Below are positions 58,591 to 59,875 of a stretch of DNA of 64,000 bases, piece by piece. Made by a program: the position numbers and the translations under genes. Location: positions 194 to 64,193 of the forward strand of contig CALXTR010000002.1 in the NCBI GenBank assembly GCA_944391475.1, written 5' to 3'. Below the pieces are notes generated by a model, which searched no databases, was not told the origin of the DNA, and was given only the letters and a program-made list of their open reading frames with translations. The stretch's first letter is position 1. The number at the start of each line of letters is the position of its first letter. Origin of the DNA: an uncultured Alphaproteobacteria bacterium. Its GTDB lineage: Bacteria > Pseudomonadota > Alphaproteobacteria > RF32 > CAG-239.

Positions 58591-58715
58591 AATCTTCCTT
58601 TACATAGACTTTAAACTGTAGGGATATTAGCAAAAAGTGCCTCAACAAACCAGTTTTTTCTCAAAGTTATGCCCATTTTTTACCTAAATTTACTTTTCTT
58701 TCGTGCAAATTATGC

Positions 58716-58743
58716 TTGCAATTTTGGTTAGATTGATTAAGCT
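58716..58743 (+). promoter_or_regulatory. Putative sigma70-type promoter of leader/XRE module A
   Basis: TTGCAA (58716-58721), 16 nt, TAAGCT (58738-58743). Conserved in copy B. Confidence 0.5.
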
Positions 58744-58749
58744 TTAACT

Positions 58750-58944
58750 GCACTCGGGTGAGCTGGGTGCGGAGTGTCACAACTCCTCATATGAAAGTAT
58801 AGCTCCTTTAATGGGGAGCGACCGGAATAAGTGTGCCTTGCGCATAACGAAGAAGGTCGACTGACATATGCAGTTGTGAACTCCCCGCCTTAGGAACGCT
58901 AGGGCGGTTTCTTTTAACCGGAAACCTAAAGGGAGTTTAGAACC
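58750..58944 (+). promoter_or_regulatory. Structured 5' leader RNA with internal intrinsic terminator (copy A); unrecognised fold
   Basis: Multiple helices supported by comparison with copy B. Terminator CCGCCTTA/TAGGGCGG plus TTTCTTTT at 58885-58915, then SD AAGGGAG and ATG at 58945. Confidence 0.65.
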
Positions 58945-59193
58945 ATGGGACATCATCGCAACCGCATTAAAGCTTGGCAGGAATGTCGCAAAGAAATTGG
59001 CGAACAAATCCGCAATATGCGCTTAGAGTTAGATTTATCGCCCGAAACCGCCGCCGAAATACTGCATACCGGCACCAATCATTTGCTTTACTTAGAAGAT
59101 GGATATCTAAAAAATATGCAAATCTCCACCCTTCACGCACTGGCTTATAAGTACCATTACAAGCTCAAGATAAGCTTTGAGAGAAAAAACTAG
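58945..59193 (+). CDS. Small XRE-family HTH protein (copy A), paralog of 23844..24089
   Basis: 82 aa. About 15 of 81 aligned residues differ from copy B by my manual alignment. The HTH_XRE pattern is present. Confidence 0.75.
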   Translation: MGHHRNRIKAWQECRKEIGEQIRNMRLELDLSPETAAEILHTGTNHLLYLEDGYLKNMQISTLHALAYKYHYKLKISFERKN

Positions 59194-59360
59194 AAAAACA
59201 AAAATAGTCATCCCTCGTTTTTCAGAGAAAAACGTCCAGGGATCTACCGATTAAAGCGACTAACTCGAAGACCCCTTGACGACTACTAAAGTAGTCGAGG
59301 GGTGACAGTTGTGGTGTGACGACACTCTCATAGTTGAGGGTGACAGTTAAAAACAAACAA

Positions 59361-59390
59361 AAAAACTCCCGTTTAGCACGGGAGTTTTTA
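59361..59390. terminator. Bidirectional intrinsic terminator (XRE ORF / ssb)
   Basis: CTCCCG/CGGGAG stem flanked by A-run and T-run. Confidence 0.8.
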
Positions 59391-59410
59391 AGATTGATTC
59401 TATCTTTTCC

Positions 59411-59875
59411 TTAGAACGGAATATCATCGTCTAAGTCTGCGGCCGGAGCAGCTGAGGGAGTGCTATCCCAACCCGAACTGCTACCGGAGAAAACATCATT
59501 GCCACCAGCCGGAGCTCCATCTCCACGGCCATCTAACAACACCAAATTGCCGTTGAAGTTTTGCAAAACAACTTCGGTGGTATATCTTTCTTGACCGTTG
59601 TTGTCTTCCCATTTGCGGGTTTGGAGCTGGCCTTCCAAATATACCTTGGAGCCTTTGCGCAGATATCTTTCTGCAATATCAGCTAACTGCGGATTAAAAA
59701 TTACAACCCGATGCCATTCGGTGCGCTCTTTGCGATCGCCTGAGAGTTTGTCTTTCCAAGTATCTGTGGTGGCGACGTTCAAATTGACAATCTTTGAGCC
59801 GCCAGTGGTGTTGCTGACTTTCGGATCTGCACCCAAATTGCCAACCAAAATTACCTTATTAATGCTACCAGCCAT
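59411..59875 (-). CDS. ssb: Single-stranded DNA-binding protein
   Basis: MAGSINKVILVGNLG OB-fold N-terminus, Gly/Ser-rich linker, and an acidic tip DDDIPF. Confidence 0.92.
   Translation of the reverse strand: MAGSINKVILVGNLGADPKVSNTTGGSKIVNLNVATTDTWKDKLSGDRKERTEWHRVVIFNPQLADIAERYLRKGSKVYLEGQLQTRKWEDNNGQERYTTEVVLQNFNGNLVLLDGRGDGAPAGGNDVFSGSSSGWDSTPSAAPAADLDDDIPF

Follow-up and report, generated by a model that had tools for sequence, protein, structure and literature searches.

In Bartonella henselae, nine highly transcribed RNAs of ~200 nt, termed Brt, each lie 10–18 nt upstream of a poorly transcribed XRE-type helix–turn–helix (HTH) gene, trp (Tu et al. 2016, PMC5387305); other species carry 0–34 copies, and Brt1–9 are mutually 74–100% similar, with a conserved 3′ block, CCCGGAAUACCAAUGCGAGGGCGCUCGCA (PMC5387305). 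The Brt/Trp pair has been proposed to combine an attenuator or riboswitch with a trans-acting small RNA (sRNA) (PMC5387305), and deletion of the Brt1 3′ stem-loop de-represses trp1, with a heme response also reported (review, PMC8070961). Here we describe an RNA–regulator module of comparable layout in a 64,000-nt stretch of DNA from an uncultured alphaproteobacterium (GenBank assembly GCA_944391475.1, contig CALXTR010000002.1). This whole stretch is hereafter the window; its G+C content is 40.7%, and all coordinates are given in its numbering. Copy A of the module spans 58716–59193 on the plus strand, flanked by gyrA and ssb, and copy B lies on the minus strand at 24320–23844. An earlier note, made from the letters alone, had described copy A as a promoter, a ~195-nt structured leader with an internal terminator and a small HTH gene; the sequence is as described, its leader being richer in G+C, and the observation is confirmed as a whole. 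The module contains a previously uncatalogued structured RNA of ~165 nt that has its own promoter and its own terminator.

Structured 5′ elements that end at an intrinsic terminator and accumulate as short RNAs are also known from Listeria (SreA/SreB) and from Enterococcus and Listeria (EutX/Rli55), and, as in the present module, possible trans action is there combined with gating of the downstream gene in cis. SreA/SreB and EutX/Rli55 belong to known ligand classes (S-adenosylmethionine, vitamin B12) and precede metabolic operons, whereas the module has no aptamer class known to Rfam, is amplified in tandem and targets mini-regulators. Type III toxin–antitoxin loci of the ToxIN kind share the order of promoter, tandem RNA units, ratio-setting terminator and small protein gene, but their repeats are ~36 nt long and lack promoters of their own, and their protein is an endoribonuclease. 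In the module, by contrast, each 165-nt unit is equipped with a promoter and a terminator and the gene encodes an XRE-type HTH protein; Pfam, PADLOC, NCBIfam and PHROGs scans gave no match of the module proteins to a ToxN/AbiQ/CptN-type endoribonuclease.

In the window, the module consists of the following parts:

58716–58743 (+): promoter of copy A, with −35 TTGCAA at 58716–21, a 16-nt spacer and −10 TAAGCT at 58738–43
58750–58915 (+): predicted terminated RNA of copy A, ~165 nt, comprising H1, P2-long, P3, P4, P5, P5a and the terminator (from fold, covariation and covariance model)
58750–58770 (+): H1 hairpin, arms 58750–57/58763–70
58771–58786 (+): local H2 hairpin GGAGU/ACUCC, arms 58771–75/58782–86, the alternative to P2-long
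58788–58870 (+): core domain, in which P3 (58788–93/58865–70) surrounds P4, P5 and P5a
58803–08/58813–18, 58819–23/58855–59 and 58832–36/58842–46 (+): P4, P5 and P5a, respectively, within the core
58872–58884 (+): 3′ strand of P2-long, AGUUGUGAACUCC, with partners 58771–75 and 58777–84
58885–58915 (+): intrinsic terminator, 9-bp stem 58885–93/58899–907, −15 kcal/mol, loop GAACG
58906–58926 (+): post-terminator hairpin GGUUUCU/GGAAACC; in the minimum free energy (MFE) fold of the read-through RNA, it takes up the U-tract
58928–58943 (+): Shine–Dalgarno (SD) region, AAAGGGAGUUUAGAAC, of which 58931–39 can pair with the anti-SD strand 58877–85
58945–59193 (+): open reading frame (ORF) of 82 residues, a divergent XRE-type HTH protein (from the ORF list, selection on the coding sequence and HTH models)
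24320–23844 (−): copy B, whole module, with −35 at 24320–15, −10 at 24298–93 and RNA from ~24286 to 24119
24150–24128 (−): terminator stem of copy B
24089–23844 (−): ORF of copy B, 81 residues

Every helix drawn in the earlier note is present (H1, H2, the long-range CATATG helix with the three helices it encloses, and GGUUUC/GAAACC), and the SD sequence AAGGGAG, the ATG at 58945 and the 82-codon ORF read as it had them. It had missed both the analogy to Bartonella Brt/Trp and the 13-bp helix P2-long (58771–84/58872–84), which competes with H2 plus an anti-SD:SD pairing. The 5′ strand of P2-long includes the loop and the 3′ arm of H2, and its distal strand region contains the anti-SD, AACUCC(C), at 58879–85. 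Three stretches of the core junctions, AUAAG, CGAAGAA and GACUG, are conserved and unpaired, and a conserved CAGUU (58871–75) lies just 3′ of the P3 3′ arm, outside the core. The terminator is called by a terminator scan (stem 58885–58907 plus TTTCTTTT), with the U-tract UUUCUUUU at 58908–15. A second copy had likewise been noted, and copy B is 84.5% identical to copy A over 478 nt (blastn). The homology between the two runs from the −35 hexamer to the stop codon, so that the duplicated unit is promoter, leader and ORF together. Against two covariance models (CMs), copy A scores 233 bits (R1) and 173 bits (R2), and copy B 241 bits. Two weak partial CM matches (18 and 20.6 bits) were rejected as further copies in the window: that at 12714–12776 (−) lies within an ORF on the opposite strand, and that at 12986–13081 (−) is an ordinary terminator with a UUUUGUUUU-type tail like those of the family terminators.

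The fold of the RNA is supported by both stability and covariation. With an MFE of −74.5 kcal/mol, the predicted terminated RNA at 58750–58915 is more stable than every one of 200 dinucleotide shuffles (z = −6.1). In an alignment of 24 distinct leaders (A3), gathered as close copies via the encoded protein, RNAalifold independently arrives at this fold as well, and 15 of its pairs are compensated. When the structure is imposed explicitly on A3, 99.1% of cells are paired, as against 36–44% when the 3′ partners are slid by 1–3 columns; double-sided changes occur at 16 pairs, and none of 500 shuffles matches the observed covariation score. Compensatory variation was not seen among these close copies for H2 or for 58802–06/58815–19, and H1 shows one-sided changes only. 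For a more diverse set, metagenomes were searched with a junction signature common to the lineage of the window and a sister lineage (AUAAG...CGAAKAA...GACUG...CAGUU, as a DNA pattern). The search gave at least 120 loci, many labelled human gut metagenome, in which at least 138 stretches are true CM matches (37–223 bits); these and all following counts on metagenome copies are among the matches listed. Alignment A4 comprises 114 such CM matches (104 distinct): 95.6% of cells are paired, against 40–49% when slid, no shuffle of 500 reaches the score, and both partners have changed at 48 of the 52 pairs tested. H1 changes on both sides at 8 of 8 pairs in this set, the terminator stem at 9 of 9 and P2-long at 9 of 13; the inner part of P2-long covaries in A3 and A4 alike. 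P5a is missing in a natural variant.

No catalogued RNA family matches this fold, as had been suspected. An Rfam 15 scan of the whole window at gathering thresholds returned tRNA only, and a scan of 58600–59420 at E ≤ 10 returned nothing on the structured leader 58750–58904. The matches that it gave elsewhere are terminator-like noise at 59318–59420 and a chance match to the small nucleolar RNA sn2343 (14.8 bits, E 3.1) on the opposite strand at 58905–58964, which overlaps the 3′ end of the terminator, the SD and the start of the ORF. The sole weak leader-type Rfam matches are spurious and stem from a bidirectional terminator 3′ of the ORF.

The unit is autonomous at both ends. In 73 distinct upstream sequences, a TTGCAA-like −35 element is followed after ~17 nt by a TTTAAnAT-like −10 element and, 6–8 nt further on, by the conserved 5′ TGC. 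A generic sigma-70 scan does not call the promoter of copy A, whose −10 matches the consensus at 3 of 6 positions; the conserved spacing nevertheless supports the predicted start near 58750 and the hexamers (TTGCAA/TAAGCT) that the earlier note had picked. A palindrome is present at the −35 of copy A (TGCAA-N7-TTGCA, 58707–58723), and other copies (for example, L092, L098, L111 and L132) carry palindromes such as TTAATTgcaAATTAA, AAAAAGAAattgcaaTTCTTTTT and ATTATCTTttAAGATAAT at the −35 or in the region of the −10 and transcription start site. These could be candidate operators for autoregulation by the HTH protein; their enrichment is small (best arm 5.6 nt versus 4.7 nt in shuffles) and confounded by upstream terminators.

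At the other end, at least three compensated variants of the terminator stem are found (CCGCCUUAG/CUAGGGCGG, CCACCUCAAA/UUUGAGGUGG and CCACCUUGA/UCAAGGUGG), always followed by a U-run. Since these variants assort independently of the remaining RNA, no anti-terminator-like partner covaries with the stem. In folding calculations, the RNA leaves the terminator's 5′ arm free at every nascent length; as modelled, termination is the default state and nothing competes with it. The internal terminator of the earlier note thus holds, and its stem covaries, but the anti-terminator suggested there, GGGGAG (58813–18) with CTCCCC (58881–86), falls: if forced, it comes at a penalty of 17 kcal/mol while 7 bp of the terminator stay paired, and no covariation is seen for it because all of its positions are invariant. 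A leader-peptide attenuator was also rejected. The sole start in the leader of copy A gives M-K-V-stop (58791–58802), and other copies swap this segment for different P3 variants without a start.

What follows the RNA also points to a free-standing unit. Downstream sequence could be assessed for 101 copies: an ORF follows directly in 73, another RNA unit in 15 and no ORF in 13. The tandem arrays contain 2–4 RNA units set 58–63 nt apart, which leaves space for a promoter only, and wherever their ends could be assessed they close with a single small HTH gene (100–116 residues). Arrays of 3–4 units are found in metagenome loci L056, L118, L156 and L158, and arrays of 2 units, with no ORF between them, in L086, L089, L091, L103, L119 and L123; unlike these RNA-only arrays, L121 and L167 each hold two complete RNA-plus-ORF modules in series. 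Because of the arrays and the orphan copies, we read the RNA as a stand-alone terminated sRNA that doubles as the leader of a regulator. The earlier note had held this, a terminated sRNA with read-through into the ORF, as its fallback, and the tandem arrays and the 13 ORF-less copies now favour it. Of that note's interpretation, therefore, the anatomy, the lack of a catalogued family and the sRNA fallback stand, and the anti-terminator does not.

The 3′ strand of P2-long has a second potential partner. In the short RNA, GGAGU-G-UCACAACU (58771–84) pairs with AGUUGUGA-ACUCC (58872–84) to form P2-long as a 13-bp closing helix, and the variable triplet of its distal strand covaries with the H2 loop through four variants. 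In the MFE fold of the read-through RNA, local H2 is formed, 58877–85 is paired with the SD region at 58931–39 and the U-tract is held in the post-terminator hairpin. The two conformers, P2-long and H2 plus anti-SD:SD, differ by 3.1 kcal/mol. The base that precedes CUCC changes together with the one that follows GGAG (AACUCC/GGAGUU, AGCUCC/GGAGCU), and the anti-SD and SD flanks are Watson–Crick complementary in 43 of 46 distinct combinations and wobble-paired in 2, both in chimeric copies. Two groups of RNAs, Sub-I and Sub-II, differ in H2. It is invariant in Sub-I (GGAGU/ACUCC) and reads GGUGU/ACAUC in Sub-II, where all 5 pairs are compensated in 31 distinct sequences, a change that gives a U·U mismatch in outer P2-long. 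Covariation of the anti-SD:SD pairing and of local H2 is suggestive of selection on both alternative conformers. As P2-long competes with H2 plus anti-SD:SD, the switch-like element would act on translation and not on termination. Outside the two pairings, an equivalent of the post-terminator hairpin (UUUUGUUUU/AAAACAAAA) is found in 53 of 62 distinct tails.

The ORF of copy A is under purifying selection (dN/dS, the ratio of nonsynonymous to synonymous substitution rates, of 0.05–0.45 for 58945–59193 against its paralogues). Its reading as an 82-residue XRE HTH protein is supported by the family, in which 9 of 10 representatives match XRE-clan HTH models and 4 exceed the Pfam cut-offs, and less so by copy A itself, whose match to HTH_31 (E 0.043) is below threshold; the protein of copy B reaches 24.5 bits with HTH_25, for which the cut-off is 24.6. 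PADLOC, NCBIfam and PHROGs gave generic, weak HTH matches only, and an AlphaFold2 model (predicted local distance difference test score 61) is too poor for use. Among the 73 downstream ORFs, 69 encode small XRE-clan HTH proteins of 74–165 residues, which are very diverse but share a common layout. The 66 homologues of the window protein are all unnamed and 47–92 residues long.

The module thus shares much with Brt/Trp. Both are multicopy, intergenic, structured RNAs of Alphaproteobacteria followed by a small XRE-type HTH gene without a promoter of its own; between the end of the U-tract (58915) and the ATG (58945) there is no promoter-like site. In both, a 3′ stem-loop limits or would limit transcription into the HTH gene, and a cis attenuator and a trans sRNA have both been proposed. 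When folded, authentic Brt gives a 5′ hairpin, a multi-helix domain, a long-range closing helix, a CUCCC anti-SD and a GC hairpin, with the SD or the start codon paired back towards the anti-SD side, as in the design of copy A. They differ in that the Brt hairpin lacks a U-tract, whereas that of the gut module is a canonical terminator with one; in protein length (108–152 residues for Trp, 74–116 for the module HTH proteins); in the RNA-only tandem arrays of the gut module; and in host, Brt being specific to the genus Bartonella and the module being from an uncultured gut alphaproteobacterium.

A Bartonella origin, first suggested by the G+C content, by gyrA/ssb and by the architecture, was rejected, as was membership in the Brt family. 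The Brt 29-mer (Table S6 of PMC5387305), which retrieves five Bartonella plasmids, is not present in the window at ≤3 mismatches, and the module finds no Bartonella plasmid in PLSDB by distant blastn or tblastn, although 5 there carry Brt. On L017 and L018, two authentic Brt loci, R1 and R2 searches with the filters disabled give noise-level scores (R1 3.4 bits on L017, R2 4.7–6.5 bits on the Brt strand), and unrelated matches in the same loci score higher. With hhalign, the protein family of the window aligns to Trp of pBGR3 with a probability of 12%, over the HTH core only, and the metagenome-assembled genomes (MAGs) that carry the module are not from Bartonella. By sequence comparison and analogy, the element is best filed as one that would work like Brt/Trp and is not a member of it, that is, as a new system of that design with no detectable homology to it. 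These comparisons fit either very deep common ancestry or convergence.

We lean, at somewhat better than even chances, towards reading the module as a self-contained ~165-nt structured RNA gene that doubles as the 5′ leader for a mini-regulator of the XRE HTH type, held off by default in two layers. The computed fold and terminator, the two competing pairings, the conservation of the promoter and the ORF-less RNA units carry this reading in silico. Transcription would begin near 58750 from the conserved promoter, and the RNA would fold into H1 and the core (P3, P4, P5 and P5a), closed by the 13-bp P2-long. The unopposed terminator at 58885–58915 would then release most transcripts as a stand-alone sRNA, with a minority reading through into the HTH ORF. 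In the long RNA, AACUCCC would leave its 5′ partner to pair with GGGAGUU of the SD region, and the freed 5′ strand would refold as H2, so that termination and then SD masking would keep translation of the regulator low. The SD would be freed by any factor that stabilised the closed core together with P2-long, and a small ligand, some protein or the HTH product could play this part. The free RNA, probably made in excess, may act in trans.

Several points weigh against this reading. The covariations of anti-SD:SD and of local H2 each amount to about one compensated position that splits two clades, and may reflect one or two evolutionary events. Four copies precede large genes (211–234 residues) for secreted, leucine-rich-repeat-like or pilin-like proteins and not an HTH gene (L072:841–1024, L104:5160–5347, L133:4719–4916 and L146:927–1113), and in the two tails listed, those of L072 and L104, there is no anti-SD complementarity beyond the GGAG core. 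The post-terminator hairpin is not clearly above composition-matched shuffles. A4 was gathered by a pattern built on the junctions and aligned to the model, which makes junction conservation in it circular and biases its pair counts towards the structure. The A4 margin far exceeds this ascertainment and alignment bias, and the junctions are also kept in the two sets found without the junction pattern, the close copies and the sister lineage. For copy A, the transcription start site, the 3′ end and the read-through are predictions. The ends of the transcripts in general, the frequency of read-through, the trigger, the role of the free RNA in trans and the targets of the HTH protein are steps that we infer.

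Other explanations share parts of this evidence. In a ligand-sensing riboswitch, the P2–P5 core with its purine-rich junctions would be the aptamer, a bound ligand would keep P2-long closed and the anti-SD engaged, thereby turning translation on, and the terminator would merely set a low baseline. Such a core would explain the complex and strongly covarying fold of several helices, the invariance of the unpaired nucleotides in its junctions, the natural variable-length stem P5a and the use of the closing-helix 3′ strand as the anti-SD in two near-isoenergetic conformers that are both compensated, and a response of Brt1 to heme levels is reported (PMC8070961). The tandem arrays and orphans, however, have nothing to regulate in cis, and no alternative structure couples the terminator to the aptamer. 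Moreover, at least 9 copies per genome stand before paralogous regulators and not before the transport or metabolic genes that would indicate a ligand, and no single pathway is consistently associated in cis, the units being followed by diverse mini-HTH genes, by another RNA unit (15 copies) or by no ORF (13 copies). We regard a riboswitch in this sense as unlikely. An arrangement reminiscent of type III toxin–antitoxin systems, in which the abundant RNA acts as decoy or antagonist by binding and titrating a protein, be it the cognate mini-HTH protein or a different one, and the terminator and tandem amplification fix the excess of RNA over protein, seems to us more doubtful still. It would account for the order of RNA, terminator and small protein gene, for the 2–4-fold amplification of the RNA over the protein gene, for the conserved purine-rich internal loops, which resemble protein-binding sites, and for the joint diversification of Sub-I and Sub-II RNAs with HTH clades; yet the protein has an XRE-type DNA-binding fold and is not an endoribonuclease toxin, the chimeric copies with a Sub-II RNA and a Sub-I tail speak against strict co-specificity, and toxicity or processing sites find no supporting evidence.

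The orphan and tandem copies would be equally at home in a purely trans-acting sRNA, with the HTH genes transcribed from promoters of their own and the SD complementarity incidental to helices rich in CUCC and GGAG; the RNA has three CUCC motifs, which recall the anti-SD sRNAs of other Alphaproteobacteria. With only ~30 nt from the U-tract to the ATG, no promoter-like element called there by the scan, an ORF directly after the unit in 73 of the 101 assessable copies, a duplicated unit that runs from −35 to stop codon and covariation of the SD flank, we find this improbable. Least probable of all, and very unlikely in our estimate, is a mobile element or selfish repeat with a structure that promotes its own spread. 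The module is multicopy and dispersed between housekeeping genes, and a putative transposable element has inserted in two copies, but the module itself has no terminal inverted repeats, target-site duplications, transposase or integrase. The gyrA-proximal site is occupied by divergent versions in both sister lineages, none of 6 viral-contig matches is true, and the RNA pairs and the ORF are under strong purifying selection.

Among species-representative genomes, the module was found only in MAGs labelled 'uncultured Alphaproteobacteria bacterium' and 'uncultured proteobacterium', one of which has 9 copies. The copies are dispersed among housekeeping genes (gyrA|ssb, topA, atpH|priA, grpE and proS). 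A phage association was considered and rejected on the viral-contig pattern matches, 0 of 6 being true model hits. Sub-I and Sub-II RNAs go with different HTH clades, and chimeric copies join a Sub-II RNA body to a Sub-I SD/ORF tail. In the sister lineage, defined by GyrA relatives at 96% identity (loci L046–L051), the same gyrA-proximal site holds a divergent full-length RNA (79–86 bits) upstream of a different HTH protein of 86–89 residues; synteny varies there, some strains having ssb and others pyrG/secG around the module. One contig of this lineage (contig_5014 of ERZ28753057) is 1,885,872 bp long and is probably a complete chromosome, which would make the host genomes small (~1.9 Mb).

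Other elements were observed in and around individual copies. Two copies in MAG CALXUQ01 contain a ~270-bp element resembling a miniature inverted-repeat transposable element (MITE), with terminal inverted repeats of ~30 nt (GGCCCCTAAATCCCCCTTAAA... / ...TTTAAGGGrGATTTAGGGGC). It lies at L009:922–1194 and L012:1154–1434, in opposite orientations and at the same site directly 3′ of CAGTT; it deletes the 3′ strand of P2-long and leaves the terminator, SD and ORF intact. The leader 'insertions' of L009 and L012 turned out to be this separate element. In the window, the ORF of copy A is followed by a 31-nt hairpin (CCCCTTGACGACTACTAAAGTAGTCGAGGGG), two copies of a direct repeat (GGGTGACAGTT) and a 12-bp bidirectional terminator common to the convergent ssb; these features occupy 59272–59302, 59300–59310, 59338–59348 and 59361–59389. 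Copy B is adjoined by genes for small secreted proteins (24245–24760 (+)), and weak or faint EF-hand (calcium-binding) matches come from a related locus (L045:393–1186).

The family adds to the known structured RNAs a complex one, with 7 helices, about 50 covarying pairs and at least 138 examples, that is not in Rfam, and the comparative evidence for its two alternative conformers is unusually clean. In a survey of novel candidate structured RNAs in human microbiomes, HTH-XRE, with 100 candidates, was among the two commonest protein domains within 5 kb (Fremin & Bhatt 2021, PMC8040213); its main text states that genomic context did not suggest a function, with none of the candidates characterised, and a term search of that main text finds mention of neither Alphaproteobacteria nor tandem copies. 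The module family may be among its HTH-XRE candidates and may explain part of the enrichment reported there. A design that couples an abundant, terminated sRNA to an XRE mini-regulator, so far regarded as specific to Bartonella, exists in an unrelated sequence family and may be a general alphaproteobacterial solution to regulation that standard annotation has overlooked. It offers a second independent system in which to test whether Brt works as a riboswitch, an attenuator or a trans sRNA. More speculatively, and as a possibility that we hold only tentatively, the P2–P5 core (AUAAG/CGAAGAA/GACUG) could be the sensor of a new riboswitch-like or protein-responsive RNA class that relays one signal to a set of paralogous mini-HTH regulators and also acts as a free sRNA. 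If so, Brt and the gut RNA would be two independent inventions of a relay from sensor RNA to mini-regulator, which would cover at least 9 modules per genome in uncultured human-gut Alphaproteobacteria.

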